Source of the DNA: Thermoplasmata archaeon
GTDB lineage: Archaea > Thermoplasmatota > Thermoplasmata > Lutacidiplasmatales > UBA184
Direction: 5' to 3'
Length of the DNA: 64,000 nucleotides
Assembly (NCBI GenBank): GCA_030037875.1
Contig: JASHPV010000007.1
Span: forward strand, 10,041 to 74,040
The position numbers and the translations under genes were made by a program. Below the pieces are notes generated by a model. That model had not been told where the DNA came from, did no database searches, and saw only the letters and a program-made list of their open reading frames with translations. Below, piece after piece: positions 2,910-49,622 of this stretch (the first letter of the stretch is position 1; each line of letters starts with the position of its first letter).

Positions 2910-3172
2910 CAGAACACCCCGGCGCGGGCGCCGATATCTTCCGCGGAGAACTCCGGCTTGAAGCGCACCGTCGCGATCTTCCCCGTGCGAACGATCTTGA
3001 TCGTGATCTTCTCCACCTTGCACTGGTAGAGGTCTTCGACCGCGTGCTTCACCTGGGCTCGGCTGGCGCGGCGGTCGACGGCGAACTCGAGCTTGTTCAT
3101 TCGCTCCATCTCGTCCATCGCCTTTTCCGTGACGTACGGGTGGAGGATCACGCGATGACGAAGCTCTGTCAT
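2909..3172 (-). CDS. rpl23: 50S ribosomal protein uL23
   Basis: 87-aa tail of ORF 2909..3766 (MTELRHRVILHPYVTEKAMDEME...KVEKITIKIVRTGKIATV). ATGA overlap with the uL4 stop. Confidence 0.9.
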   Translation of the reverse strand: MTELRHRVILHPYVTEKAMDEMERMNKLEFAVDRRASRAQVKHAVEDLYQCKVEKITIKIVRTGKIATVRFKPEFSAEDIGARAGVF

Positions 3173-8669: not shown

Positions 8670-8933
8670 ATGCGGTTCGGATGGGCGTATTGGCTCCTGG
8701 GAACGCTCCTTGCCATCACCGCGGTGATGCTGGTACCGTCGATACTGATCTCCGCATACAGCGCGGTCCCCCCGCTCCCGTGGACGTTCCTCGCCCTCTA
8801 CGGAACGGTCGCGTTCCTCTGCGCCCTCGGTGCGGCGCTCCTCCTCCGCAGAGGTCGGGTTCTTCTTCACGCGGATTCCATCATCGGTTTAAAGAGCGGG
8901 CACGACGATGAGAGCCGCGGGCCTGTAGCTTAG
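8670..8933 (+). CDS. Small two-TM membrane protein (hypothetical)
   Basis: 87 aa with two hydrophobic helices. Its 3' end overlaps the tRNA 5' end by 16 nt, which lowers confidence. Confidence 0.3.
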   Translation: MRFGWAYWLLGTLLAITAVMLVPSILISAYSAVPPLPWTFLALYGTVAFLCALGAALLLRRGRVLLHADSIIGLKSGHDDESRGPVA

Positions 8934-9027
8934 CTGGGACAAAGCACTGGCCTTCTAAGCCAGCGAACTCGGGTTCAAAGGCCGGCGGGAAGTGATCTTC
9001 CTTTCGGCGGAAACTCCCGACAGGCCC
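8918..9027 (+). tRNA. tRNA-Arg (anticodon TCT) interrupted by a ~35-nt intron in the T-loop (position 59/60 or 60/61)
   Basis: Hand-folded. Acceptor GGGCCTG/CAGGCCC is 7/7 WC. D-stem GCTT/AAGC. Anticodon stem CTGGC/GCCAG with loop CTTCTAA. T-stem TCGGG (8968-72) pairs CCCGA (9015-19) only after skipping 8979/80..9013/14. A14, G18G19, A21, U33, G53, C61 are present. Confidence 0.6.
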
Positions 9028-15530: not shown

Positions 15531-15818
15531 GACTTGGCCCTGGTTGTCGTCCGAAGGGTTCGACAGCCATCGAAGTCCTCGCCGAGAACTCAGGCTGGAT
15601 GGGAAGTGGACTGGGCGAGATTTCCCGGTGCCGGAGGAGACGCCTCCGGCCCCTTTGAACTCGCGACCTCTACCTTGCCAAGGTAGCGATCTTCCGCTGA
15701 TCTACCAGCCCACCGAGGCGGCGGAGTACGGCCGGACAATAAGCACTTCGCCGCAGGGGTGCCCGTTCGCTGCCGAAATGGAAGAGTTAATGGGGACGTG
15801 GCCCGTCCGCGCCCACCG

Positions 15819-19651: not shown

Positions 19652-20221
19652 GTGCCGAATGGACTGGAGATTGCGGTAGCGGTCCAGGCGCTGCTCGCCA
19701 TCTGGATTGGCGTGCGCTCGTACGGCAGCTATCAGGGCCGGCTCTACTCCACCGGCCGGGTACTGATCTTTCCGGTCTTGATCCTCCTCGTGTACGCCGC
19801 GACGGAGCTCGAGACGATCGCTACGGTGCCGTGGGCGTTTCCGACCTGGACGTCGGTCGACCTGGTGGTCCTAGTCGCTGCGGCCCTCGCGACCCTGCCG
19901 ATAGCAAACCGCTTGGTTCGAGTCTCGCAACGCTCGGACGGGCAATGGTACTATCAGTACGGGATCGAATTGATCGGATTTTACCTCGCCCTATGGGTGG
20001 CCCGATTGGCCCTCGCCGCGTATTACGACCCGGCCTCGCTCGAGTTCGTTATATCGTCGACCGCCGCCCCCCTGTCCGCGGCCACCTCGGCCGTTCTCGT
20101 CCTCATCCAAGGCCTCTTCTCCGTCAGCTCCGGGCTGGTCATCGGTCGTGGCATCGGTACCTATCGGCTCCACCGACAGGCCGAGCGGCGCGCCGCCTCC
20201 GTGGTAGCTCAGGCCCGCTGA
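19652..20221 (+). CDS. Hypothetical polytopic membrane protein
   Basis: 189 aa with ~5 hydrophobic helices. Followed by a T-rich stretch (gagttttttcg, ~20322), a likely archaeal oligo-T terminator. Confidence 0.5.
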   Translation: MPNGLEIAVAVQALLAIWIGVRSYGSYQGRLYSTGRVLIFPVLILLVYAATELETIATVPWAFPTWTSVDLVVLVAAALATLPIANRLVRVSQRSDGQWYYQYGIELIGFYLALWVARLALAAYYDPASLEFVISSTAAPLSAATSAVLVLIQGLFSVSSGLVIGRGIGTYRLHRQAERRAASVVAQAR

Positions 20222-20222
20222 C

Positions 20223-20237
20223 TCCCCTCTCTCGGAA
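20223..20237 (+). repeat. 15-bp direct repeat CCCCTCTCTCGGAAC (copy 1), flanking a low-GC islet
   Basis: Exact 15-mer recurs at 21197..21211. The ~1 kb between the copies is visibly lower in G+C than its surroundings. Confidence 0.5.
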
Positions 20238-20354
20238 CCGGCTCGAATAGCGTTCGATCCTTGAGGAATGAGTGATCAACCGCAAGTTAGTCAATCGCGG
20301 TCGAGGTAAGAGTGAAAATAAACGGAGTTTTTTCGTTAACTTCACCGCAGGGTT

Positions 20355-21050
20355 ATGCCCGCCGAACTAGCCGGCCGCCGCCGTCGAGCCACCGTCGCAG
20401 TTATTCTTGTGGTGATTTTGGTTATCGCTTCTGTCGTGCTGTATGTTCAATTTGGGGTTCACTCATCTACAGTGGGCATAACGGCGTACGACGCGAACTC
20501 TACGGATATCGCGAACCTAACTTCGCTTCCGGGAACAGGCCATGTCAGGGTGCTCTACCTGAACTCCACGGCTTTCGCGAATGAGTCGGCGTACCCGAGT
20601 TCGACGTTGACCTTTTCGAGCATGATTGGGGCCTTCTATGTCGGCCACCCTTACAACTACTTCCAATTTTTCATTAACTTCAGCCTCACCGGACATTTCG
20701 CCCCCAACTTGCAGCCGGAGGAAATCACGATCTCGGCCAGCGACGTGGGGCCCTACAACAACTCTGCTGCGCTCTTCGGAATTGGGCAGCCCGGGTCCTT
20801 GGATAATCTCTCGACGCCCAACTCCATCCTTCAGTTCACCGGTAACAACTCAAGTGCCATTTCCTTTGACGTCGAAACTAGTTCCTCGGCAGGCTCAGAC
20901 TGGCATGGGTTCTCCCTGGAGAACTGGCGATACCAGTTCCTTCTCGGTTCGTACGCAGGCAACCACTTGCTTCGCCTTAACGCCTCGTTGCTCGGCCTAA
21001 GCCGCTCGGTCTGGATTCAACAAAGTGTCAAGATAATGGATGTTCAGTGA
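20355..21050 (+). CDS. Sequon-rich secreted/anchored protein with basic-then-hydrophobic N-terminus (possible class III/pilin-like signal)
   Basis: MPAELAGRRRRATVAVILVVILVIASVV... followed by >=10 N-x-S/T sequons (NST, NLT, NES, NFS, NNS, NLS, NAS). Encoded in the low-GC segment between the direct repeats. Confidence 0.5.
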   Translation: MPAELAGRRRRATVAVILVVILVIASVVLYVQFGVHSSTVGITAYDANSTDIANLTSLPGTGHVRVLYLNSTAFANESAYPSSTLTFSSMIGAFYVGHPYNYFQFFINFSLTGHFAPNLQPEEITISASDVGPYNNSAALFGIGQPGSLDNLSTPNSILQFTGNNSSAISFDVETSSSAGSDWHGFSLENWRYQFLLGSYAGNHLLRLNASLLGLSRSVWIQQSVKIMDVQ

Positions 21051-21196
21051 AGTAGAAAATGTACCGACCGGTCGTGTCAAGAAAGCGACGACCTACAGGA
21101 GCGGTGGCATGTGCGGTTCTCTTGGCCTCGGTTGGAATGATCGGGCTTTCGATTGGGAAGGAAACTGCCCGGGTATCTTCTCCCCTCGTCTCTCTG

Positions 21197-21211
21197 CCCC
21201 TCTCTCGGAAC
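21197..21211 (+). repeat. 15-bp direct repeat CCCCTCTCTCGGAAC (copy 2)
   Basis: Second exact copy, ~100 nt upstream of dnaK. See copy 1 at 20223. Confidence 0.5.
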
Positions 21212-21234
21212 TCACGGAATCTCCTTGAGTAGTC

Positions 21235-21242
21235 TTTTTATA
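21235..21242 (+). promoter_or_regulatory. TTTTTATA TATA-like box plus downstream inverted repeat GCGCCC-ttt-GGGCGC (21271..21285) in the dnaK 5' region
   Basis: AT-rich box ~70 nt upstream of the dnaK ATG. A 6-bp perfect inverted repeat lies in the putative leader. Confidence 0.3.
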
Positions 21243-21309
21243 GTAGTGAAAGCATTCTCCTGACGCTAAAGCGCCCTTTGGGCGCGACCTACAAAGAGGC
21301 ATCCCAGTT

Positions 21310-23211
21310 ATGGCGAAAATCATTGGAATCGACCTAGGAACGAGCAACTCGGCGGCGGCCGTCCTTGAGGGCGGGCGCCCCGTGATCATCCCGAGCGCGG
21401 AAGGCACGACCGTCGGTGGCGGAAAGGCCTTCCCGTCGTACGTGGCTTTCGCGAAGGATGGCCAGCTGATCGTCGGCGAACCGGCCCGGCGACAAGCGGT
21501 CTCCAACGCGCAGTACACGTTCACCGCGTTCAAGCGAAAGATGGGCACCGATTATCGGTACCGCGGACCGGACGGCAAGGAGTACACCCCCCAGCAGCTG
21601 TCCGCGTTCCTCCTCCAGAAGATCAAGCGTGATGCCGAGGCCTTCCTGGGCGAGAAGATCCAGAAGGCGGTCATCACCGTCCCTGCGTACTTCAACGACA
21701 ACCAGCGCCAGGCCACCAAGGACGCCGGCCAGATCGCGGGGCTCGAGGTCGTTCGGATCATTAACGAACCGACGGCCGCGTCGCTCGCGTACGGCCTCGA
21801 CAAGGCCGGGAAGTCGCAGAAGATCCTCGTCTTCGACCTGGGCGGTGGAACGCTCGATGTGACAATCATGGAGTTCGGCGAGGGCGTGTTCGAGGTCGTC
21901 TCGACCAGCGGAGACACCCAGCTGGGTGGGACCGACATGGACACGACGCTGGCCGACTACATCGCGGGAGAGTTCCGGAAGGAGTCGGGCATCGACATCC
22001 GGACCGACAAGATGGCGATGCAACGCGTCCGGGACGCCGCGGAGAAGGCGAAGATCGAGCTCTCCTCCACGCTGGAGACGCAGATCAATCTCCCCTTCCT
22101 CACCGCCACCAGCGAGGGCCCGAAGCACCTCGCCCTGACCCTTTCGCGAGCGAAGCTCGAAGAGCTCCTTCGGCCGCTCATCGACCGCTGTAAGGCCCCC
22201 GTCGAGCAGGCCATCTCCGATGGCAAGCTTTCGAAGGAGCAGATCGACCGGATCATTCTCGTCGGCGGCCCGACCCGGATGCCGATGGTACAGAAGTTCG
22301 TGGAACAGCTGATCGGTCGTCCGATCGAGCACGGCGTCGACCCGATGGAATGCGTCGCGATGGGCGCTTCGATCCAGGCCGGCGTGCTTGCCGGCGAGGT
22401 CAAGGACATCCTGTTACTGGATGTGACGCCCCTCTCGCTCGGCGTGGAGACGATGGGCGGCGTGTTCACGAAGCTCATCGAGCGCAACACGACGATTCCG
22501 ACGCGGAAGAGTCAGATCTTCACGACGGCGGCCGACAGCCAGAGCTCGGTCGAGATCAAGGTCTCCCAGGGCGAGCGGCCGATGGCTTCCGACAACGTGG
22601 CCCTAGGGAACTTCATGTTGACCGGCATCCCGCTCGCGCCGCGCGGTGTCCCCCAGATCGAGGTCTCGTTCGACATTGATGCGAACGGTATCCTCAACGT
22701 CTCCGCGAAGGACCTCGCGACCGGGAAGAAGCAGGGCATTACGATCACCGCCTCGACCAAGCTCTCGAAGGAGGAGATCGACCGGATGCTGAAGCAGGCC
22801 GAGCAGTTCGCCTCCGAGGACAAGAACCGGAAGGAGCAGGCCGAGACCCGCAACCGGGCGGAAGCCCTGACCTACGAGGCCGAGCGCATCCTGACCGACG
22901 CGAAGGACAAGATCCCGGAGGCCGACGCGCAGGCCGTGCGCGCCAAGGTCGAGGAGCTTCGGGCGGTCCTCGACTCCAAGGACCTCTCGGCCCTGAAGCA
23001 GAAGACCGACGAGCTGACGCGCGCGATCCACCAGGTCTCGCAGAAGCTCTACGAGTCGGCGCAGCAGGCGCCCCCTTCCTCGGGATCGCCCGAGGAGCCG
23101 TCGACGGGGCCGACCGAAAGCGGCGGTTCCTCGCCGCCGGGGAGCGGGCCGGTGGACGCCGACTTCAAGGTCGTGGACAAGCAGCCCGGCGACGAGAAGA
23201 CCGAAAGCTAG
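21310..23211 (+). CDS. dnaK: Chaperone DnaK (Hsp70)
   Basis: 633 aa. [26 protein letters not shown] and other Hsp70 signatures. No grpE or dnaJ adjacent. Confidence 0.97.
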
Positions 23212-30551: not shown

Positions 30552-31910
30552 TTAACCCATCTGGCTTGATAGAAGGCCAGGTTCCGGACCGCGGGGAGCG
30601 AGGTGTCGACGGGCCGACGGCGTAGGGTGGTACCGGCCCAACGGGAACTCCGGGGGGACGCGACGAAGCCTCCGGATTTCCGGAGGGGCCCGGTGCCGGC
30701 ACCGGGAACAACGGAACCCCCGGCCCACGCCAAGGGACCCCATGCGATGCCCACACCCCGGGCAGCGAGGATTCTCCCGCGCGATGAAACGCGGCCGCAA
30801 CGAGAGGAGGTCAACCCCCTCGATCCGGAATACGGAGTCTTCTTGGGACCCGCCCCACAGCCGGACCCGATCGCCCGGGAGAAGGCTTCCGACGACCCGG
30901 GGAAGGGTCTTCGTCGGCTCGAAGACGGCGCACCGCACCCGAGGTCCAGAATCCAGCTGAAGCGGGAAGAACACGTGACCGCCCCGACGGGCCACGGGGC
31001 GCTCGGCCAACCGACCCGAGACGGTGCCGGCCGTGAACGGGACGGCGGGAACCGGCCAAGGTTGTCGCACGTGGTCCCCCGTCCCCTGGTTGGTTCGGAA
31101 CAGAAGCCAACGCTCGATCGGCTCAGAACGGATCTCCTGCACGGCTGCGATGGCGGCCGCCGGCTCCGTCGCCCGGACGCCGAACAGGATCGGGCAGGCG
31201 GTGTGGGGGGTAATGAGGAGGCGCCGGGTCCGCGGGTCGAGGCACAAGAACAGCTCCGGGTGGCGCCTTACTGTCACATCCACCGAGCCACGGTCTACAT
31301 TCCGGGCGGTTCCCCAGCGCATCGGATCTCGATAGGCGATGGCTTCCCACGTGGGGTGGCCGCCCGGCCAAGCGAGCGCCGCGGCCGCCCCGATCTGGCC
31401 GACGCCCGAAGGGGTCGAGCGAACGATGGGATCGGTCCCGACGAGCCATCGCTGGACCTCGTCCATCGTGACGATACGTCGGACCGCTTCCCAATAGAGT
31501 TCCGAGGGGGGTTTACGCCGGAGCACGAGGAGGGCGGGGTCCGTCCCGGGGTCTGAGCCCGCCGACGTCGACTGGACCGTGGTCCACAGTCGGTCCGCGA
31601 GTTCGAGCCGTTCGGGCTCCGTGAGGTCTCGCGCCGAGGGGTAACTGCGGGCCGGCCCGTTCGGAAGCGACCCCACGGCCGTGGGAGTTCCTCGACCATG
31701 GCCGAACCGCGCTACCAACGCCGCGTTGCCCCGAGTCTTGGTGGGAACGTTGGGGTTCAATCGGACGAGGCGAGGCTCCCCAATGAGGTCGAACCCGAGG
31801 GCGTTCGCCGCCCGGAGCACCTCCGTCAGAGTGTAGGTCGTGCAGCCTCGTTGGGGGCTATCCGTGTCGTCTACTCCGACCCAGACGACGGTCCCACCCC
31901 CGCCTCTCCC
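30552..31910 (-). CDS. tiaS: tRNA(Ile2) 2-agmatinylcytidine synthetase TiaS (start codon unresolved)
   Basis: GEPRLVRLNPNVPTKTRGNAA and C-terminal Zn ribbon CPGCGH...CSRC. The conserved N-terminal VWVGVDDTDSPQRGCTTY is encoded in frame upstream of the track's GTG (31820), back to a TAA at 31911..13. Confidence 0.8.
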   Translation of the reverse strand, partial: GRGGGGTVVWVGVDDTDSPQRGCTTYTLTEVLRAANALGFDLIGEPRLVRLNPNVPTKTRGNAALVARFGHGRGTPTAVGSLPNGPARSYPSARDLTEPERLELADRLWTTVQSTSAGSDPGTDPALLVLRRKPPSELYWEAVRRIVTMDEVQRWLVGTDPIVRSTPSGVGQIGAAAALAWPGGHPTWEAIAYRDPMRWGTARNVDRGSVDVTVRRHPELFLCLDPRTRRLLITPHTACPILFGVRATEPAAAIAAVQEIRSEPIERWLLFRTNQGTGDHVRQPWPVPAVPFTAGTVSGRLAERPVARRGGHVFFPLQLDSGPRVRCAVFEPTKTLPRVVGSLLPGDRVRLWGGSQEDSVFRIEGVDLLSLRPRFIARENPRCPGCGHRMGSLGVGRGFRCSRCRHRAPPEIRRLRRVPPEFPLGRYHPTPSARRHLAPRGPEPGLLSSQMG

Positions 31911-32839
31911 TTAGAGGAGCTCTCCGAGGGCGGAGTGGCGCTCTTCCGCCGTCGGCGCCGCCACCGGCGGACCACAAGGCCCACCCCGACGCCCGCGGCG
32001 ACCACAATCGCGCTTACGATCAGCGCGTCGCCGGTGGGGAACGAGGGGCCGAACTTGATCACGATGGTGTGCCCGGGGAGCGGGATGTACTGACCCGATG
32101 CAGAGGCTGATCCCCACCCGAACGGGTCGTTCGAGACCGACGTGGCGTTCAGGCCGGTGACCGATGTGATCGTGATAGCCGCCGGCGTCACGAATGAGAC
32201 GTTCACCGGGCTGACGGGCACGCTGAGGTTTCCCAGGATCGCGGGAAGGTTCCACGCGACCTGAAACGTATGGGCGTTCCCCACTCCGCTCCAACTGAAC
32301 ACGACCGCCAAGGTGGCCGTCACGCCGATCGGCGCCGACGAGTCGTCGGCGCCGAGGGCGTTGCTGAACGAGACACCCTGCAGCTGGTCCGAGACGGGGA
32401 CATTCCCGTCCATCGTGACGTTGAGCACTCCGGTGATCGTGCTCACGGGAATCAGCTTCGCCTCGCTGTCGATCAGAGCCACGAAGCGTTGAACGTCCAC
32501 GGTGTTCACCCGACCGTCGCGGTCGCCGAACAATCCGGCGAAGAGCGGATTGCTCTCGGTGGCGTTGATCTCGGCAAGAATGGCGGCCCTCGACGCGTTC
32601 GTCCCCGGGAACAACGCGACCAGCGGCCCGAAGTAGCCGTCCATGGCGTACCGTAGCGCCGAGCCGTTCGCGACAACGGTCTCGAGTCCGGCGGAGATCG
32701 TGCCGTCGCTGCTCAACGTGAGGTGGATGCCGGACGCTGGAGCGCTTCCGCTCGTCGCGGGCAGTCCCGCCCCGAGCCCAAGGGCGGCTACCGCGAGGAC
32801 CAGCAGCAGTCTCGATCCGTGTCGAGGACGTCCGAGCAT
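31871..32839 (-). CDS. Secreted surface protein: Sec signal peptide, sequon-rich domain, C-terminal TM anchor with Arg-rich tail
   Basis: Internal ATG 32839 (MLGRPRHGSRLLLVLAVAALGLGAGLPATSG). Sequons NGS, NAS, NAT, NVT, NLS, NVS. C-terminal IVSAIVVAAGVGVGLVVRRWRRRRRK. Confidence 0.55.
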   Translation of the reverse strand: MLGRPRHGSRLLLVLAVAALGLGAGLPATSGSAPASGIHLTLSSDGTISAGLETVVANGSALRYAMDGYFGPLVALFPGTNASRAAILAEINATESNPLFAGLFGDRDGRVNTVDVQRFVALIDSEAKLIPVSTITGVLNVTMDGNVPVSDQLQGVSFSNALGADDSSAPIGVTATLAVVFSWSGVGNAHTFQVAWNLPAILGNLSVPVSPVNVSFVTPAAITITSVTGLNATSVSNDPFGWGSASASGQYIPLPGHTIVIKFGPSFPTGDALIVSAIVVAAGVGVGLVVRRWRRRRRKSATPPSESSSKGEAGVGPSSGSE

Positions 32840-32864
32840 GGCTCGGCTCCAACCTAGGCGACCC

Positions 32865-33740
32865 CTACCCGGCGGTCGCGAGCAGCTTCTGGTAGGCCGG
32901 GAGGTTGTGCTCCAGAGCGATATCGGCCCGGGCCGGGCCGACCATGTCGGGGAGGAGCTTGAGCTCGAGCGGATTGCTCGCGGCATCGGACGGCTTGCCG
33001 GGTCGGTGCATGACCCCGACGGGGATCTTTCCCGCGTTCATCGTTTCGGTGCAGAGCCGGAACACGGCGGACCGGTCGGTCGGATCGTAGCCGGGCAACT
33101 TCTCGATGTTGACGATCTTCTCGCGCCACTCCTTGAACGTGTCGTTGTACGTGACGCAGGGAGAAAGATCCTCGACGAACGCGTAGCCCCGGTGGTCCCG
33201 GTTGAACTGGAGCGCCTCCGACAGGACCGCTGTCATCGTCTTTGGGTCTCCCGAGAAGGTCCGGGCGACGAAGGCGCCGGTGGGGATCGAAAGCGCGGTG
33301 AGGATGGCGTCGAACGGAACCTCGATGTTCCCTTCGAACCCGAGGCGGGACGTCGGCGAGGCTTGGCCCTTCGTGAGCCCATACGTCTCGTTGTTCATCA
33401 CGATGTACAGGATCGAGGCGTTCTTCTTGAACGCGTGCATGAAGTGGCCCATCCCGATCGCGTACCCGTCGCCATCGCCTCCGGCCGCGATCACGGTCAG
33501 CTGGGGGTTCGACAGCTTGAGGCCGATGGCTTGGGCCAGCAGGCGACCGTGGAGCGCGTGCACTCCGTTGACGTCGATGAAATTGTGGATCCCTCCCGAG
33601 CAGCCAATCCCGCCGACGAGCACGGCTTCGTGGGGGGGAATCTTCAGGTCGACGAGGGCTTTCTTGGCGGCCGCGAGGACGCCAAAGTCCCCGCAACCGG
33701 GACACCAGGTGTTGGCCGTCGGTTTAGCGCTTTGTACCAT
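32865..33740 (-). CDS. korB: 2-oxoacid:ferredoxin oxidoreductase beta subunit (TPP-binding)
   Basis: Internal ATG 33740 (MVQSAKPTANTWCPGCGDFG). TPP motif GDGDGYAIG. Overlaps the alpha-subunit stop. Confidence 0.9.
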   Translation of the reverse strand: MVQSAKPTANTWCPGCGDFGVLAAAKKALVDLKIPPHEAVLVGGIGCSGGIHNFIDVNGVHALHGRLLAQAIGLKLSNPQLTVIAAGGDGDGYAIGMGHFMHAFKKNASILYIVMNNETYGLTKGQASPTSRLGFEGNIEVPFDAILTALSIPTGAFVARTFSGDPKTMTAVLSEALQFNRDHRGYAFVEDLSPCVTYNDTFKEWREKIVNIEKLPGYDPTDRSAVFRLCTETMNAGKIPVGVMHRPGKPSDAASNPLELKLLPDMVGPARADIALEHNLPAYQKLLATAG

Positions 33741-41759: not shown

Positions 41760-44700
41760 ATGGACTCTGAATCTGGCAGCTGGTGGAGCCGTTACGGCTG
41801 GACGACCACCATCTTGCTCGTTGCTTTCGCTGCGGCGTTCATCGTTCGGGTCATTTTCTCGCTCAGTGTCTTCGAGCAGTGGGGCTGGCTCTACGTCTAC
41901 GGGGGCGGTTCGGATTCGTTCTACCACTGGCGAGTGGCGGACTACATCCTCACCAATCACACGAACCTGATCCACGATTCGCTGCTCAAGTATCCCGTCG
42001 GCGCGACCAATCCACGCGAACCGCTGTTCGACTGGATGAACGCGATCTTGGGGATCATCTTCGCGCCGATCTTCGGCGGAAGCGCCGTCAATGCCGCGGC
42101 TTTCTTCCTCAACCTAGACCCGCCCCTCTGGTCGGCTCTCTCGGTCTTCCCGATCTACCTCATCGGGAAGGAGGTCAGCTCCAAGCGGATGGGCCTCGTC
42201 GCGGCCATCACCTACCCGTTCGTCGTCGGGAGCATTCAGGCCGCCACGTTGGGCTACGCGAACTATCTGCCCTTCTACACGTTCTTCATCCTGATCTACT
42301 TCTACGCCTACCTTCGCACAGCGAAGCTGGTCGGAACCAAAACCTACATCACGAGCTTCCGACACCCAAGTGAGGTCCTGGCCGGTTTGCGGCGGTTCCT
42401 CCGCGAGGACCGCCTCGCGGTGAAGTGGGCGGTCTTCGCCGGCGTCTCGCTGGGCGCGCTCGCACTCGCCTGGCAAGGGTATCCGCTCGCTGTCGCGATC
42501 GTCATCATCTCGCTCGCCGTCATTATGGTGGTCGAGCGGATCCGGCGGATCGATTCGGTCAACCTGTACCTCGCGACGTGGATCGCCGGGCTCGTCGGGT
42601 TCCCGATGGCCGTGCCCTACTACCTTGCCCAGCACCTGTTCGCCACCTGGTTCGACCTCCCGCTGCTGATCTATTTCGGCGGACTCGTACTGCTCTTGCC
42701 GTTCGTGCTCCTGCGCCAGTATCCGTGGGTCGTCACGGTGCCCTTGCTGGGGGGCGTCGTTCTGGCCGGTCTGGCGGGTTTCGCATTCATCGCCCCTGCG
42801 TCGTTCCAGACGCTGATCACGGGCCAGGGCTACTTCGCGAAGACGCTGATCTACTCGACGGTCGCCGAGGCTCAGGCCCCCTCGTTCGATGCGCTTGTGC
42901 TGTCGTACGGGGTCCTGACGTTCTTCCTCGCGTTCGTGGGTCTCGGGCTGTTCGCGATTCACCTGATCCGGCAACGGTTCCGCCGGGAGCACGCCCTCTT
43001 TGTCGTGTTCGCCGTCGTGAGTATCTACCTCCCGGTGTCGGCGGCCAAATTCTTCTACCTCGGTTCGCCGGCCTTCGCGCTGCTTCCCGCGGAGGCACTG
43101 CTCCTCATCCTGGACGTCGCCGGCTACCCGCAACTCCGTCGAACGGCGGCCTCCCTCTCCGGTACCCGGGGTCAGTTCACCGCGTTCCGGCGCGCGTTCA
43201 AGGCCCGCCACGTGCTGGTTCTCCTGCTCATCGTCGTTATCCTGGTGCCGAACGTGTGGTATGCCGTCGACGCGGGAATACCCTACAACACCAAGGCCAC
43301 CTACAGCACCCAGGTCTACGACACGCTGCCCCCGGCGCTCCGTACGACCCCGGCCAACGCGTCGAGCTTCTACCTCGGCGCCTCGGGCACGGAACTCGAT
43401 ACGCCCAATCAGTACGACGAGGCCGGGTACAACTGGCTCGCAACGCAAGATACGAATCTCGCCCCGGCGGCCCGGCCCGCGTTCATCAGTTGGTGGGATT
43501 ACGGATTCCAAGCGATCGCCGAAGGGCAGCATCCCTCGGTCGCCGACAACTTCCAGAACGGTATCCCGGCCGCCGGGAACTTCCTCCTGGCCCAGAACGA
43601 ATCCCTCGCCATCGGCGTGCTCGCCACCACGCTTCTCCAGGCGGAGGAAGAAACGAGCGGATACGCCTACCTTCCTCCGGCGCTCAACGCGATCCTAGCC
43701 TCCGATGGCGTGAACGTCGCCGAGTTGCACACGCTGCTGGCGAACACGTCCGCCGACCTCCCGCTCGTGATCGACCATCCGGAGCGCTACCTCCCGGTCA
43801 ACCCGAAAACGATCACCGCGACCAACGCGATGTTCGACGCGGTAAGCTGGTTCCTCGCCAACACGCTTCCCGAGAACGGAGTGGCGCAGGTGTACGACGA
43901 TATCCAGACCTACACGGGCTGGACGATCCGGTACGCGATGGTCGATGACCGGCTGTTCCCCTTCTCGGGGACGAACACCGGCATCTTCTACGCGCCGGCC
44001 GACCTCACGGGCCGCGTCATCGGGCTGGACGGCGCCCCGACGTCGTACTACACCATCGAGGCGGTCGGCTCGGACGGGAACGTGTACCCGATCAACGCGG
44101 TGCCCTCCGGGGTATCGGTGGTGAACTACGTGCTGAACCAGCTCGCGCCGTTCTACAACTCGATGATCTACCGCATTTACATGGGCTATAACGGGACCGA
44201 CATCGGGCTCAGCGCCGGAATCCCCAGCCTCGAGGGCTCTCTCACGAGTTACACTCCGGAGCCCGGGTGGATGCTCCAGCATTTCGAGGTCGCGTACCGG
44301 ACCGCCTTCTACTCGCCGACGCCCACGACCTCGAGCAGCGCCTGCGACATCGCCACGAACCTCCCGGAGGCGGCCCTCCTCGCAGCGAAGACGAACGGCA
44401 CCGCCAACGTCGGTCCCGACTGCTATTTCTCCAGCGGCGAATCGATCCTGGAGTACTATCCCGGAGAGATCCTCTCGGGCACGGTGACCCTCCCCGATGG
44501 AACCCCCGTCCCGGGCGCCCGTTTGACGGTCTACGACGGCTGGCACATCCCCCATCAGACGGTCCTGACCTCCGCCGACGGAGGGTTCTCCGTGATCCTG
44601 CCGCCCGGGAACGACACCCTGAACCTCACGAGCGGGCCGTTGCAGGGGCTGGCCCAGAACGGCACCGAGCTCCTGGACTCGATTCCCCTGGTCGTGGACC

Positions 44701-47700
44701 CGGCCCTCGGGTTCAGCCTGGAGGCGCCCCCGATCGCCCAGAACTTCGTTCTTCAGCCGGGCTCCGTCAACGGCTTCGTTTACTGGAACGCGACCGGAAA
44801 TTCGACCTACGACTCGTCCGTGGACCCCGTGGCCGTGGGGGCCAACGTTACGCTGGGCGGCCCCGGTCTGCGTACCTACAACGCGACCACGGACACGGAC
44901 GGTAGTTTCCGTCTGACCGATGTCGCTCCCGGGGTCTACAACTTCACGGTGCGAGCCGGAGGCGCAACATTCTCCCAGGGCCAGCTGGCGGTCCGGCCCG
45001 GCGCCGCCGCGAACGCGACGGCCGGGCTCGTCCCGTCGAAGGTCACGGGAACGGTGAAGCTGGAGGACGGAACTCCGGCGGTCGGCGCCACGGTCACGAT
45101 CTCGGACCCGGCCGGGCTGTTGGAGGCCGCGGCGACGAACGGTTCGGGGAGCTACACCTTCGCCAATCTGGTCCCGGGGAACTACTCGGTGAAGGCCGAG
45201 TCGGGCGTCAACCTGGCCGCCAACGCGACGGCCGTGGCGCTCAACCAGACCGTGAAGACCGTGACCCAGAACTTGACGCTCATCCCCGTAGTCCCCGTGG
45301 ACTTCGAGGTCGAGGCCGGAGGGGCCCCCGTGCCGGGCTTCGTGGTCCGGATGACGCCCATCCGGGAGACGTCCGGCCTTCCGGGCGCGCAGGCCCCCCG
45401 GCCGACGGACGCGCTCGTCTTCACCAGCGACGCCACCGGGTACGTCCACGCGAACCTGCCGGCCGGCAATTACTCCATCTATGGATACGGACCGGTCGGG
45501 TCGACCTTCCTCGCCGGTTTCGAGAGCGCCTATCTGCCCACCGTCGGGGCCCGCATCGCCGTTGCCCCGCTCCAGCTGTCGCCCGCGGCCTCCCTTTCGG
45601 GCCGATCACCGCTTCCCGCGGAGGTCCCCACCGTCGACCTAAGCGCGACCCAGGTGGCGCTCTATGACAGCGCGGGCAACGAGCTCACCTTCTTCGCGAA
45701 CTCGACCGGCAGCTGGTCGGTCATGGCCCCCGTGGGGAATTACAGCGTCCAAGCCTTGGCCGTGGGCATCGCCGCCGGGGCGCTGAACTACTCTGCCGTC
45801 GGTTACGTGGACCTGTCCCGGGCGACCTCTGTCTCGTTGCCGCTGACTCCGGCCTTCCGATACTCTACCCAGGTGGGAACGCTGGTACCTCCGGACGCCA
45901 CGTTCTACCCCGCCTCCGCTTCCGAGGTGCACCTTACGGTGAACCCCGCGGGTGCGACGATCAGCACGCTCACCGATTACAACGGTTCGACGAGCTTCCT
46001 GCTCCCGACGGCCGAACCGGATACGACGTACTGTCTCGCGGTCCAGAGCAACGGGTACGGAAGCTACTCCGCCTGCAGCCTCTCCGTCGGCGAGCTGACG
46101 GCGATTTCACGGGTCATTCTTCCATTGTTCAACGACACATTGAGCGTGACCGTGACCGGATTACCGTCCGGAGCTATGTTACGGCTCAACGCCACGTCGC
46201 TCGGCCCGCCGGCCCAAACCCTATCGGTGGCCGGCGGCGCATCCTTTGATGTCTCGTTGGCGCCGGGGACGTACCAAATCACGGCGTGGGCCCCACCCGC
46301 GTCCGGCGCGGGGGTCTATCTCCCCGCTCAATCCGTCAACGTCACCCTCCCGTTGGGAGGGATCACCGTGAGTTTGGGGGTCCAGCTGTACTTCCAGTTG
46401 GCCGCCAAAGGGGTTCTGAGCCTCCCGACCGGGGTGACGGCCTCCGCGGTCCAACTGAAAGTGTACGCGCCCCCGTTCAACTTCTCGGTGTCGGGGACGG
46501 TCTTCGAGAAAGGATTTGACATCGCTCCGGGAGTCTACTCGGTCTACGCCTCCGCCCTGGTCTCCGGGGTGAGCTATGCTTCGTTGAGTCAGGTCACGGT
46601 GAGCTCGAGCGGCGTCGCCACGCCGACCGTGAGCCTCGCGAGCGGCGTGTCCTTGACCGCGACGCTCGTCGGCCCGGGAGGTGCGCCCCTCAATCTGACC
46701 GCGCCCGTGTACTGGAGCGGGCCCGACGATTCCCAGCTCTACTCCGTGGCCGTGGACGGCACCGTGACGCTCTCGCTCCCCGGCAGCGCGATATACACGC
46801 CCCAGCTGAACGTCACCCTCACCACGAGCGTGAACGGCATCCTCCGGTACGTGACCTACGCGGTGGTGCCCGGGACCAGCTGCTCTGTCGGAACGACGGC
46901 CTCCGAGTGCTCGATCCCGCTCTCCGCGACGTACCTCGCCGCCGGCATCGCAGGTCAGTTCGACTGGAACGGCGCCCCGCTCACGATCCCGGGTACCGTG
47001 CAGCTGATGGGGCCGTTTCCGTCGACCAACATCTCGGTGGTCACGACGACGAACGGCCTGTTCACAGCCGCTGTGTTGCCAGGAGTCTACACCCTGTACG
47101 CCACCGCCGGGTCGGGCGCGGGGGTCGTCGCGAGCCTGGTGCAGGTCACGGTTCCGTTCCCTTCGACGAACATCACGGTCGACCTCGCTCCCGCCTGGAC
47201 CGACACGCTCACCCTGCTCGCGCCGAGCGGAGTCTCGTCCTCTCCCACCGGGAATGTGACTTGGACGAACGCGGCGGGGGTCTCCTGGACCGTGTCGGGT
47301 GTGCCGCTCGGTGTCGTGGAGGGCTGGGTCCTTCCGCAGGGCGTCTGGACGGTGTCGGCCAACGGCACGATGGCACCTTACGGACGCCCGGTGTCGGCAC
47401 TCGCGACCGGCACCGTGTCGTTGGTGACAGGAAACCAGGCCACCAACCTCGTGCTGATCCCTCAGTTCACCCCGGCCGTGACGATCGCGACCCGGCTTCC
47501 CGACACCGCCACGGTGCCGGCCGGCGGCCTCGCGACCTTCTCGTTCACCGTGCAGAACACGGGGAACGAGCCGGTGACCATCCGCTTCTACGGCGACCCG
47601 GCGGCCTGGAATTTCACGTTCACGCCGGCCACGATGACGCTCGGGGTGGGCTCCGGGAACTCGACCGGGGGAGGTACGGTGTTGGTCCGAATCCCGTTGG

Positions 47701-48320
47701 GCACGGACACGAACCACCCGCCCGTCGTCCTCGGCGCCGTGCTCGTGTCGAATCGCGCGCAAACCGTGGGCACTTCGGTTCCCTCCCCCACGGTCTCCAT
47801 CATCCCGGTACCCGCGATTACCGTGGGCCCCGGCTTGAGCCCCACGGTGACGCTGAAGACCGCGACGGTGAGCTTTGTCGTCCAGAACACGGGGAACTCT
47901 CCTTACTCGGCCGCGGTGAGCGTCGTCAACCAGGCGGAACTGGAACAGCTCGGCTGGTCGGTCGCGTTGATGAAGGGCCTCGGCGCGGTGACCGCGCCGT
48001 ACGACTTCGCGCCGGGTCAATCGATCACGTTCTCGGTCGTGCTCTCCACAACTTCCTTCGCCCAGGCGCCGGGTACCGTGGTGGTTCAGGCCGTCGACCT
48101 GAATTCGTCGGGCAACGTCGTCGCGTCCGCGGAGCTCCCGGTGCCCATCGCCTCCATCGCGGCCCCGAGCGGTATCTCCGTCAGCGGCCCGAACGTCGGC
48201 TCCCCGCCCATCATACCAGACTGGGGGTGGACCGTGATCGCCATTCTCCCCGCGGTGGCCTTCCTCGGGATCGTGCTAACGGTCCGATGGTGGCGTACCC
48301 GCCGGTGGACCCGGAGGTGA
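41760..48320 (+). CDS. aglB: Oligosaccharyltransferase AglB (STT3 family) with a very long C-terminal extracytoplasmic extension and C-terminal TM anchor
   Basis: 2186 aa. N-terminal ~13-TM STT3 core with WWDYG motif (FISWWDYGFQA). ~1300 aa of repeated beta-sandwich-like segments (GTVTLPDGTPVPGARLTVYDG, GTVKLEDGTPAVGATVTISD). Ends ...ILPAVAFLGIVLTVRWWRTRRWTRR. Confidence 0.85.
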   Translation: MDSESGSWWSRYGWTTTILLVAFAAAFIVRVIFSLSVFEQWGWLYVYGGGSDSFYHWRVADYILTNHTNLIHDSLLKYPVGATNPREPLFDWMNAILGIIFAPIFGGSAVNAAAFFLNLDPPLWSALSVFPIYLIGKEVSSKRMGLVAAITYPFVVGSIQAATLGYANYLPFYTFFILIYFYAYLRTAKLVGTKTYITSFRHPSEVLAGLRRFLREDRLAVKWAVFAGVSLGALALAWQGYPLAVAIVIISLAVIMVVERIRRIDSVNLYLATWIAGLVGFPMAVPYYLAQHLFATWFDLPLLIYFGGLVLLLPFVLLRQYPWVVTVPLLGGVVLAGLAGFAFIAPASFQTLITGQGYFAKTLIYSTVAEAQAPSFDALVLSYGVLTFFLAFVGLGLFAIHLIRQRFRREHALFVVFAVVSIYLPVSAAKFFYLGSPAFALLPAEALLLILDVAGYPQLRRTAASLSGTRGQFTAFRRAFKARHVLVLLLIVVILVPNVWYAVDAGIPYNTKATYSTQVYDTLPPALRTTPANASSFYLGASGTELDTPNQYDEAGYNWLATQDTNLAPAARPAFISWWDYGFQAIAEGQHPSVADNFQNGIPAAGNFLLAQNESLAIGVLATTLLQAEEETSGYAYLPPALNAILASDGVNVAELHTLLANTSADLPLVIDHPERYLPVNPKTITATNAMFDAVSWFLANTLPENGVAQVYDDIQTYTGWTIRYAMVDDRLFPFSGTNTGIFYAPADLTGRVIGLDGAPTSYYTIEAVGSDGNVYPINAVPSGVSVVNYVLNQLAPFYNSMIYRIYMGYNGTDIGLSAGIPSLEGSLTSYTPEPGWMLQHFEVAYRTAFYSPTPTTSSSACDIATNLPEAALLAAKTNGTANVGPDCYFSSGESILEYYPGEILSGTVTLPDGTPVPGARLTVYDGWHIPHQTVLTSADGGFSVILPPGNDTLNLTSGPLQGLAQNGTELLDSIPLVVDPALGFSLEAPPIAQNFVLQPGSVNGFVYWNATGNSTYDSSVDPVAVGANVTLGGPGLRTYNATTDTDGSFRLTDVAPGVYNFTVRAGGATFSQGQLAVRPGAAANATAGLVPSKVTGTVKLEDGTPAVGATVTISDPAGLLEAAATNGSGSYTFANLVPGNYSVKAESGVNLAANATAVALNQTVKTVTQNLTLIPVVPVDFEVEAGGAPVPGFVVRMTPIRETSGLPGAQAPRPTDALVFTSDATGYVHANLPAGNYSIYGYGPVGSTFLAGFESAYLPTVGARIAVAPLQLSPAASLSGRSPLPAEVPTVDLSATQVALYDSAGNELTFFANSTGSWSVMAPVGNYSVQALAVGIAAGALNYSAVGYVDLSRATSVSLPLTPAFRYSTQVGTLVPPDATFYPASASEVHLTVNPAGATISTLTDYNGSTSFLLPTAEPDTTYCLAVQSNGYGSYSACSLSVGELTAISRVILPLFNDTLSVTVTGLPSGAMLRLNATSLGPPAQTLSVAGGASFDVSLAPGTYQITAWAPPASGAGVYLPAQSVNVTLPLGGITVSLGVQLYFQLAAKGVLSLPTGVTASAVQLKVYAPPFNFSVSGTVFEKGFDIAPGVYSVYASALVSGVSYASLSQVTVSSSGVATPTVSLASGVSLTATLVGPGGAPLNLTAPVYWSGPDDSQLYSVAVDGTVTLSLPGSAIYTPQLNVTLTTSVNGILRYVTYAVVPGTSCSVGTTASECSIPLSATYLAAGIAGQFDWNGAPLTIPGTVQLMGPFPSTNISVVTTTNGLFTAAVLPGVYTLYATAGSGAGVVASLVQVTVPFPSTNITVDLAPAWTDTLTLLAPSGVSSSPTGNVTWTNAAGVSWTVSGVPLGVVEGWVLPQGVWTVSANGTMAPYGRPVSALATGTVSLVTGNQATNLVLIPQFTPAVTIATRLPDTATVPAGGLATFSFTVQNTGNEPVTIRFYGDPAAWNFTFTPATMTLGVGSGNSTGGGTVLVRIPLGTDTNHPPVVLGAVLVSNRAQTVGTSVPSPTVSIIPVPAITVGPGLSPTVTLKTATVSFVVQNTGNSPYSAAVSVVNQAELEQLGWSVALMKGLGAVTAPYDFAPGQSITFSVVLSTTSFAQAPGTVVVQAVDLNSSGNVVASAELPVPIASIAAPSGISVSGPNVGSPPIIPDWGWTVIAILPAVAFLGIVLTVRWWRTRRWTRR

Positions 48321-48410
48321 GCGGATCTGTCCACGTGGTCTGACCGGCGCGCCCTCCGTCTCCTGGCCTGTGTAGGGCTCCTGGCAATCCTGGCCTTCAC
48401 CCTCCTGGGT

Positions 48411-49151
48411 TTGCCGGCCCCGGCTCACGCCTCGACAACCTATCCGAAGATCATGGAGACGACGACCGGTCCCTCGGTGGTGGGCCGGACGCTCCAGGTG
48501 CAGTACGTGGTCACCGGCTCCGGCGGACCGGCGGAGGCGCCGAACGGGACCACCGTCGGCAACATCACGTACAACGCAACGCTCAGCGGGAACAACGTCA
48601 CCTCCGCGCTGATCGCGCCGCCCACGGGCGTCCTCGTGAACGGGAGCGTGATCCTCCGATTCACCGCCCCCAACGTGACGGAGCTCGTCAAGCTCCGCAT
48701 CGAGCTGACCTCGAGCTACGACAACCACAACGAATCGATGAACTTCACCAATTCGATCCAGGTCGTGCCGCCGTACGTCCTCGCCGGACTCCTGGTCGCC
48801 GGCCCGACCACGGTCACCGGGTTTAACATGACCGTCACGCTCGACGGCGTACCGGTCGGCCAGGTGGTCGTGCCCACGATCTCGGCGAACGGGTCGTACC
48901 GGTTCACCTACGACTACGTACCGGTGAGCCTGAGCCCCGGTTGGCATACGATCGCCGTCTCGCTCACGCCCGAGCACGGCCTGGTGACGTTCCAAGGCGG
49001 CGTGGAGCAGCTGAGCGCGCAATTTTTCATCACCAGTGCGCCGCCCGACTACGCGCTCGATGTGGGGATCGGCGTCGCCGCCTTCGCCGTGGCCGTCTTT
49101 ATATGGGGCTCGGTGGTGGGCGCGCGCCGCCGGGGCCGGCGGCCTCGCTAG
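48411..49151 (+). CDS. Sequon-rich surface protein with C-terminal TM anchor plus Arg-rich tail. True N-terminus (signal peptide) lies in frame upstream, directly after the aglB stop
   Basis: Track start is TTG 48411. In-frame upstream codons 48321..48410 encode ...DRRALRLLACVGLLAILAFTLLGLPAPAHA|ST, a classic signal peptide, with no ATG/GTG/TTG. Sequons NGT, NIT, NAT, NVT, NGS. C-terminal ...FAVAVFIWGSVVGARRRGRRPR. Confidence 0.5.
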   Translation: MPAPAHASTTYPKIMETTTGPSVVGRTLQVQYVVTGSGGPAEAPNGTTVGNITYNATLSGNNVTSALIAPPTGVLVNGSVILRFTAPNVTELVKLRIELTSSYDNHNESMNFTNSIQVVPPYVLAGLLVAGPTTVTGFNMTVTLDGVPVGQVVVPTISANGSYRFTYDYVPVSLSPGWHTIAVSLTPEHGLVTFQGGVEQLSAQFFITSAPPDYALDVGIGVAAFAVAVFIWGSVVGARRRGRRPR

Positions 49152-49167
49152 GCCCCGGCATGAACCG

Positions 49168-49341
49168 ATGATCGCGCGCGCGGACCTCCGGTGCACCTCG
49201 TGTGGCCGGGGCTTGACCGCTCCCGGAGCGACGGCGTTTCTCTGTCCGTCCTGCGGCATCGAGACCATCGGACGCGATGCCCGGTGCCGGGACCAGAGCG
49301 TGCCGTACAAGTGCACGAACTGCGGCTTCGTGGGTCCCTGA
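49168..49341 (+). CDS. Small zinc-ribbon protein (conserved partner upstream of aEF-1beta)
   Basis: 57 aa: MIARADLRCTSCGRGL...FLCPSCGIE...CRDQSVPYKCTNCGF. Confidence 0.6.
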   Translation: MIARADLRCTSCGRGLTAPGATAFLCPSCGIETIGRDARCRDQSVPYKCTNCGFVGP

Positions 49342-49356
49342 CCGGTGAGGCGCACG

Positions 49357-49622
49357 TGGGCGAAGTCGTGGTACTGTTCCGCCTGATGCCTCACGGCGTC
49401 GAGACGGACATGAACGCCCTGGCCGCCGGGGTCCAGCGCGCCGTGCCGGAGGGCGTCAAGATTCGAGGGATGCAGATCAAGGACGTGGCGTACGGGCTCA
49501 AGTCGTTGCTCGTCGCGGCGGCGATGCCCGACGCGGGCGGGGTCCTCGACCGGTTCGAGGAGGCTCTCGCCAAGGTATCCGGGGTCGAGTCCGTCGAGGT
49601 CATGGAAGAAAGCCTGGTGTAG
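49357..49622 (+). CDS. Translation elongation factor aEF-1 beta
   Basis: GTG start giving MGEVVVLFRLMPHGVETDMNALAAGVQ...GVESVEVMEESLV (~88 aa), the typical aEF-1beta pattern. Confidence 0.85.

Follow-up and report, generated by a model that had tools for sequence, protein, structure and literature searches.

Translation in archaea is taken to start at AUG, GUG, or UUG, and these rules are enforced by the gene callers. Translation table 11 is broader and lists CUG and AUU/AUC/AUA among the near-cognate initiators; ACG, to our knowledge, is not an initiator of that table. The subject of this report is a gene directly behind a giant aglB gene, called X throughout (48327..49151, + strand), in which a CTG codon stands where relatives carry a canonical start. 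It lies in a stretch of 64,000 nucleotides of a Thermoplasmata archaeon (contig JASHPV010000007.1 of assembly GCA_030037875.1, positions 10,041 to 74,040 of the forward strand), referred to below as the window, whose coordinates are used unless a related locus is named. A preliminary description of the stretch had observed that X continues the aglB frame behind a TGA stop with no canonical start, and offered UGA read-through, non-canonical initiation with tight coupling, or an assembly indel as explanations.

The closest described systems are gene pairs coupled by termination-reinitiation (TeRe) and near-cognate starts. Termination-reinitiation is predicted for co-directional genes that lie -8 to +10 nt apart, and pairs of this kind show an enrichment of subunits belonging to a single complex (Huber et al., 2023, PMC10666635), while Shine-Dalgarno motifs inside the upstream gene usually enhance the reinitiation (Huber et al., 2019, PMC6728339). 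As for the codon itself, in E. coli CUG supports initiation at 1-2% of the AUG level (10.1101/063800), and ribosome profiling of Haloferax volcanii yielded putative alternative initiation sites of which about 30% were near-cognate, a group that was set aside by its authors (PMC7261190). A search of the literature brought up no direct report of a CUG or ACG start in an archaeon.

The junction of aglB and X

With a confidence somewhat above even, we favor an initiation of X at CUG 48327 that would be guided by a Shine-Dalgarno sequence and probably coupled to the termination of aglB. The 8-nt Shine-Dalgarno GGAGGTGA (48313..48320, + strand) is formed by the last two Arg codons of aglB (CGG AGG) together with its TGA stop (48318-20). 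It is followed by a 6-nt spacer (48321..48326, +) and then by the candidate start codon CTG (48327..48329, +), which is identical in five assemblies and aligns with the TTG, ATG, and GTG starts of relatives. That this CTG is located 6 nt 3′ of a perfect GGAGGTGA is a point absent from the preliminary description.

GGAGGTGA corresponds to the canonical Shine-Dalgarno, whose complement is the conserved 3′ end of 16S rRNA. The clade of loci that carries it with the start position at +6 comprises 18 distinct junction types of 61-100% identity, in which [CA]GGAGGTGA is invariant (18/18) and the spacer keeps the same length in 17. The aglB 3′ end of this clade reads CGG AGG TGA, or AGG AGG TGA in L060 and the more distant L114. 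Across aglB and X of the window only one of 72 Arg codons is AGG, and since that single AGG forms GGAGGTGA, the motif is considered to be selected at the nucleotide level. Further genes of the window likewise have Shine-Dalgarno-like motifs (GGAGG or GGTGA) 4-9 nt ahead of their starts, and the +6 nt of the co-directional aglB-X pair falls within the -8 to +10 nt range given for termination-reinitiation (PMC10666635).

In the mechanism we envisage, the ancestral start codon of X would have mutated to CTG (48327-29) in the window strain, and the initiator tRNA would read the resulting near-cognate CUG with a first-position mismatch. Initiation would be assisted by the 8-nt GGAGGTGA at its usual 6-nt spacing, and ribosomes ending aglB on the UGA inside this Shine-Dalgarno, 6 nt upstream, would probably help through termination-reinitiation. 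Actual CUG use and its coupling to aglB translation are what we infer. What the sequences establish is that the CTG is orthologous to canonical starts, that the Shine-Dalgarno, its spacing and the gene adjacency are conserved, that near-cognate codons recur and persist at this site in relatives, and that the gene is intact. Among the three options of the preliminary description, non-canonical initiation with tight coupling is the best supported, as the CTG is orthologous to ATG, GTG, and TTG and stands 6 nt behind a Shine-Dalgarno.

Translation confirmed that the aglB frame directly past TGA 48318-20 reads ADLSTWSDRRALRLLACVGLLAILAFTLLGLPAPAHA followed by STTYPK and ends at TAG 49149-51. It was likewise correct that no in-frame ATG, GTG, or TTG precedes the hydrophobic core of X and that ATG is absent from 48321..48410, for which all frames were scanned. 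A start upstream of CTG 48327 was rejected, since the in-frame TGA two codons before it blocks such a start; GTG at 48335 and other GTGs were rejected as out of frame, and ACG 48333 as being 12 nt from the Shine-Dalgarno and unaligned with orthologous starts. A scan for an internal bacterial-type promoter that could yield a leaderless transcript found none, with a model not suited to archaea, and inspection by eye showed no TATA-like AT-rich box over the final 100 nt of aglB. When the window was crudely scanned for a Shine-Dalgarno with a near-cognate codon and a long coding-like open reading frame (ORF), no second convincing case emerged.

The gene X is genuine and intact, and it encodes a type I membrane protein. 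A protein search with X found 109 homologues, all from Thermoplasmata metagenome-assembled genomes (MAGs) or metagenomes, mostly 265-290 aa long with a canonical start and aligned over the full length including the signal peptide, and the X region has a coding-type composition (G+C at third codon positions 0.89). The product of 274-276 aa comprises a signal peptide, two immunoglobulin (Ig)-like domains, a transmembrane (TM) helix, and an Arg-rich tail. Its signal peptide (residues 1-35; 48327..48431, +) consists of the n-region STWSDRRALR, the core LLACVGLLAILAFTLLGL, and the c-region PAPAHA followed by S, and by inspection DRRALR, LLACVGLLAILAFTLLGL, and PAPAHA before S fit a Sec-type cleavable signal peptide; n-region, hydrophobic core, and the (L)PAPAHA motif are kept across the orthologues. 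Judged by eye from this motif, cleavage would fall after AHA, and the twin Arg means that a Tat-type signal may also be considered.

Behind the signal peptide follow the sequon-rich Ig-like β-sandwich domain 1 (residues 43-147; 48453..48767, +), an AlphaFold2 block with a predicted local distance difference test score (pLDDT) of about 90, and domain 2 (residues 150-235; 48774..49031, +), seen in the AlphaFold2 model and with a weak CARDB match. The C-terminal TM helix with the tail ARRRGRRPR and the TAG stop (49050..49151, +) is nearly invariant among homologues. The AlphaFold2 model (28 sequences, mean pLDDT 84) places a helix at 4-27, β-sandwiches at 43-147 and 150-235, and the TM helix at 242-269, so that the predicted fold class of an Ig-like β-sandwich is supported. 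Foldseek against PDB gave generic Ig/macroglobulin/Fab-like matches only, with low TM-scores; the Pfam CARDB match (PF07705; E 0.01, 16.5 bits against a cut-off of 22.7) is below the gathering score, which leaves X outside that family. An NCBIfam search of X gave no match and no curated family fits, nor does X contain a PGF-CTERM-type sorting motif. Together with the signal peptide pattern and the TM helix, the 10 N-X-S/T sequons counted support the earlier picture of a secreted, membrane-anchored, sequon-rich protein, which would be secreted and N-glycosylated.

This architecture bears on a start at one of the downstream canonical codons, which would give a protein without a functional signal peptide. 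The earliest canonical in-frame start is TTG 48411..48413 (+), which lies within the hydrophobic core, and its use would remove the n-region and most of the core, destroying the signal peptide as the preliminary description had stated; the next is ATG 48453..48455 (+), past the cleavage site, from which the public annotation derives a 232-aa product (P0001) lacking the entire signal peptide. These are the only canonical in-frame codons, and the ATG is the one picked by the gene callers. Neither codon, however, has a Shine-Dalgarno-like motif at the proper spacing, the stretch they skip retains its signal-peptide character in about 110 homologues and has a coding-type composition, and sequon-rich Ig-like domains with a C-terminal TM helix and a basic tail would be expected to need export. 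A downstream start is accordingly very improbable, and the public annotation of X from ATG 48453 is truncated.

Start codons of X across relatives

The CTG of the window is found in independent data. P0001 is encoded by contigs of three Logan assemblies of separate runs and of NCBI GCA_030050175.1, with a junction that agrees base for base with the window, and between the NCBI contig and the window there are 8 differing positions and one gap across 4.3 kb. The 90%-identity cluster of P0001 has one other member, P0110 (274 aa, beginning MSTWSDRRAVRLL), carried by 8 contigs of another project (L045-52) that share 98.3-98.5% identity with the window across as much as 6.8 kb. The junction is cggaggTGAgcggagTTGtcc in this TTG strain and cggaggTGAgcggatCTGtcc in the window, the two being separated by two adjacent bases at 48326-48327 (GT vs. 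TC). Such a pair of neighboring differences from the closest strain could be suspected as a sequencing or assembly error, but the window, the three Logan assemblies, and the NCBI MAG are identical here while one of them diverges elsewhere (8 nt in 4.3 kb), and the change is a substitution with no homopolymer context, leaving this suspicion a negligible weight. Because TTG to CTG is a substitution without an indel, and the junction is the same in five assemblies, the assembly-indel option was dropped.

CTG 48327 aligns with the starts of nearly all orthologues, including TTG in the 98.4%-identical strain (6.8 kb) and ATG in an 82% orthologue, and judged by this alignment it is the ancestral start position of X. 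A comparison of orthologous loci for a conserved start, as the preliminary description had proposed, thus found ATG, GTG, or TTG at the same +6 position as the CTG. Over the 18 junction types of the clade, position +6 is ATG in three (L005, L008, L010), GTG in three (L006, L057, L060), TTG in three (L045-52, L111/112, L113), CTG in one (the window), ACG in seven (L007, L053, L054, L110, L055, L056, L114), and CCG in one (L009, with GTG at +12). The near-cognate relatives were found by checking family members with N-terminally short called proteins: of the public family members inspected, at least nine had calls with a short N-terminus or lacking the signal peptide, and the public protein calls of the ACG lineages are N-terminally truncated (P0020, P0030, P0031, P0060, P0068, P0091). 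In the coordinates of the respective loci, the ACG sites lie in L053 332-400, L054 332-400, L110 208-276, L055 251-400, L056 335-400, L114 317-400, and L007 about 2992-3010. In L007 a new ATG is present at +15, and L114 offers nothing but a GTG at the hydrophobic core itself; no canonical start precedes the core in the window, L053, L054, L110, L055, and L056, yet their Arg-bearing n-region can still be read in frame.

On a neighbor-joining tree, the lineages without a canonical start are scattered among canonical ones, a pattern that would reflect either several independent events or long persistence. Within the ACG subclade of L055, L056, and L114, divergence amounts to 19-38% at 4-fold sites and to 23-46% in the signal-peptide region, yet the 12 nt past the stop (GGTCGA ACG CGC) are invariant, so that TGA-GGTCGA-ACG-CGC is kept. 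The ratio of amino-acid to 4-fold-site divergence is 0.43-0.59 in ACG lineages, against 0.37-0.67 in canonical pairs, and the near-cognate lineages show zero indels across 230 mature codons; the Shine-Dalgarno is kept in every one of them. ACG lineages are hence under normal purifying selection, and a near-cognate codon at +6 is therefore compatible with long-term maintenance of X.

These relatives also bear on a recent loss of the start, in which TTG to CTG would have largely silenced X, leaving a hypomorphic or null gene that looks intact from lack of time. The window is only about 1.6% of nucleotides away from the TTG strain and X has changed little, with 6 synonymous changes and 3 nonsynonymous codons, beside 36 synonymous and 11 nonsynonymous changes in the portion of aglB compared; polarizing on L005 suggests, from few sites, that at least 2/3 of the amino-acid changes in X arose in the TTG strain. 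A loss would also agree with CUG being a poor initiator where measured (10.1101/063800) and the ancestral TTG being already weak. On the other hand, X accompanies aglB in 39 species and 88 junctions, so its loss is likely costly, the CTG is the consensus of five assemblies, which derive from three or more sequencing runs and of which one is slightly divergent, and the ACG relatives hold X under normal purifying selection across the 4-fold-site divergence given above. We therefore regard a recent silencing as unlikely, although it is the least unlikely of the alternatives considered here.

Read-through and the case for near-cognate initiation

The remaining alternative is that the aglB UGA within GGAGGUGA is leaky in the clade and that X is made wholly or partly from an AglB-X polyprotein. 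In this case UGA read-through would give a low-level fusion, the internal signal peptide would re-insert, and a cut by signal peptidase after AHA would free X, while the start codon would become dispensable and decay. X is in frame behind the UGA in the window, L053, L054, L110, L055, L056, and L114, and a leaky stop would account for the start having decayed to ACG or CUG in six or more lineages, none of which has lost the frame shared with aglB. A workable topology can be inferred from the aglB TM helix, the cytoplasmic Arg-rich tail, and an N-in/C-out hydrophobic segment with AxA, and the scarcity of ATG at +6 (3 of 18 junction types) fits a relaxed constraint on the start codon.

The in-frame state may, however, be simply inherited along with the 6-nt spacer, and it is confined to the GGAGGTGA+6 clade, hence not conserved among orthologues. 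The C-terminus of giant aglB lies directly 5′ of X in 39 of 39 species-level loci (GTDB genomes), and the same adjacency holds, wherever the upstream side was readable, in 88 distinct junction sequences after adding 53 metagenome loci and contig look-ups. The separation ranges from -4 to +22 nt, the commonest arrangement being a 4-nt overlap. In the distant clade (34-45% identity), overlaps are ATGA in 38, GTGA in about 10, TTGA in 1, and CTGA in 2 distinct cases, and other lineages have offsets of -1, 0, +3, +4, +7, +8, +12, +14, or +22 nt, some with TAG or TAA stops. Given these overlaps and varied offsets, X is usually out of frame with aglB; the NTGA overlaps and the -1, +4, +7, +8, and +14 offsets put most of the family in another frame. 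Read-through is thus improbable for the clade, and it is not a feature of the family. In the lineage of L058/L059 (around 690-715 of the locus), a 1-nt spacer deletion relative to L007 moved the ATG from +15 to +14 and X out of frame; since it was tolerated, the spacer is non-coding there. The CTGA overlaps (L084/L085 and L091, around 690-700 of the locus) were at first candidates for a frame-independent proof of CUG initiation, which was dropped owing to an in-frame GTG at -16; this alternative GTG stands 12 nt upstream of the CTG, inside GGAGGTGG, and leaves the case ambiguous.

The junction itself also speaks for initiation. The Shine-Dalgarno, with its otherwise almost unused AGG, and the exact 6-nt spacing persist in the near-cognate lineages, where they would be unneeded if read-through alone made X. 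The codon at +6 stays within one mismatch of ATG unless a new canonical start arose just downstream, and the Thr codons at this position are ACG in 7 of 7 cases, though ACC accounts for 37% of Thr codon usage in the genes concerned. The junction shows no significant RNA structure (z = -0.51), and an Rfam gathering scan of the window returned only two tRNA matches, with no selenocysteine or other recoding element at the junction. Taken together, we give the leaky stop a small probability, somewhat below that of a recent silencing. A less exotic variant is that near-cognate re-initiation on ACG or CUG may be the normal, long-lived mode of X expression, which would make ACG a working archaeal start.

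Several considerations weigh against CUG initiation at 48327, the explanation we favor. The archaeal start codons given in reviews are AUG, GUG, and UUG only (PMC7531240, PMC4705826), and CUG is a weak initiator where it has been measured (10.1101/063800). The CTG allele is young, being less than 1.6% from the TTG strain, so selection had little time to purge it if harmful. Every single mutation of ATG yields a near-cognate codon, which makes codon identity weak evidence, and all lineages without a canonical start have X in frame behind UGA, where read-through would work too. The conservation of GGAGGTGA cannot be fully separated from that of the aglB coding sequence, and its complementarity to the anti-Shine-Dalgarno is presumed from the conserved 16S rRNA end, the organism's own 16S lying outside the window. 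The case, finally, is one of sequence comparison.

The wider interest lies in the family-wide recurrence of ACG, and once of CUG, at the restart site behind aglB, as the aglB-X pair offers a natural series of ATG, GTG, TTG, CTG, and ACG at one fixed, Shine-Dalgarno-spaced site. If CUG and ACG do initiate, near-cognate initiation or re-initiation could sustain an archaeal gene over evolutionary time, the pair would provide a defined construct for the trade-off among Shine-Dalgarno, stop distance, and codon identity, and a class of systematic mis-annotations would be explained. The pattern also marks X as an obligate genomic partner of the giant AglB, and as a candidate accessory subunit or dedicated substrate of this N-glycosylation enzyme.

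Genomic setting and comparison with known systems

The giant aglB (41760..48320, +) encodes an STT3-type oligosaccharyltransferase of 2186 aa whose ORF ends at TGA 48318-20. Its assignment is supported by PF02516 (E 7.8e-9, above the cut-off) and a WWDYG motif at residue 578, while the NCBIfam model archaeo_STT3 (TIGR04154) matches with E 1.9e-67, below its curated cut-off. Pfam returned STT3 and CarboxypepD_reg matches, and a C-terminal extension of about 1300 aa consists of CarboxypepD_reg/Ig-like β-sandwich repeats followed by a second membrane anchor (TM helix) and the terminal tail RWWRTRRWTRR. This C-terminal part is conserved in each related locus (L005-L114) with a readable upstream region, and full-length products of about 2200 aa are recorded for several. 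On the 3′ side, X is followed by a 57-aa zinc-ribbon protein of the HVO_2753 family (49168..49341, +; NCBIfam PRK14890.1, E 1.7e-20), which is also called in the related locus L053, and by the 88-aa aEF-1beta (49356..49622, +), with a GTG start 7 nt past GGTGA; EF1_GNE is among the genes called in L001-L005 and L045-52. The aEF-1beta gene recurs in all related contigs that reach far enough, the zinc-ribbon gene being called in L053 only.

Elsewhere in the window, the ORF at 31871..32986 (-) has, as the preliminary description had proposed for it, an architecture like that of X, with a signal peptide, sequons, a TM helix, and the Arg-rich tail RRWRRRRRK; the longest ORF there includes a 50-residue Ser/Arg-rich N-terminal extension ahead of the likely true start (MLGRPRHGSRLLLVL). 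The G+C content of the window is 64-69% and locally falls to 0.588 at 20001..22000, against 0.64-0.69 elsewhere. The two Rfam tRNA matches, at 8919..8977 (+) and 15656..15711 (-), cover 56-59 nt of a 71-position model and score 35.5 and 29.1 bits, near the threshold, and may be unusual or truncated tRNAs.

Compared with known prokaryotic near-cognate starts, the X junction is alike in that the codon at the start position of relatives deviates from AUG by one base and is preceded by a Shine-Dalgarno at canonical spacing. It differs in its archaeal host, in sisters that mostly carry ACG, in a site only 6 nt past an upstream stop, and in being known here from sequence. The likeness to TeRe-coupled pairs (Huber et al., 2019, PMC6728339; Huber et al., 2023, PMC10666635) extends to the co-directional arrangement, with +6 nt here and ATGA or GTGA overlaps in relatives, and to an upstream gene, aglB, whose 3′ end holds the Shine-Dalgarno of X. 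Unlike in those pairs, the restart codon of aglB-X is non-canonical and the Shine-Dalgarno incorporates the stop codon, and GGAGGTGA could equally drive de novo internal initiation of X. With programmed read-through the locus shares an intact ORF that runs on in frame right past a UGA with no canonical start, whereas X possesses a conserved ribosome-binding site of its own, is mostly out of frame or overlapping in orthologues, has no stimulatory structure, and opens with its own signal peptide rather than with an extension domain. Finally, X resembles Ig-like/CARDB-type archaeal surface proteins in its signal peptide, tandem β-sandwiches, sequons, C-terminal TM helix, and basic tail; having neither a curated family nor a PGF-CTERM-type motif, it is set apart from them as a protein defined by strict adjacency to giant aglB in one group of Thermoplasmata.

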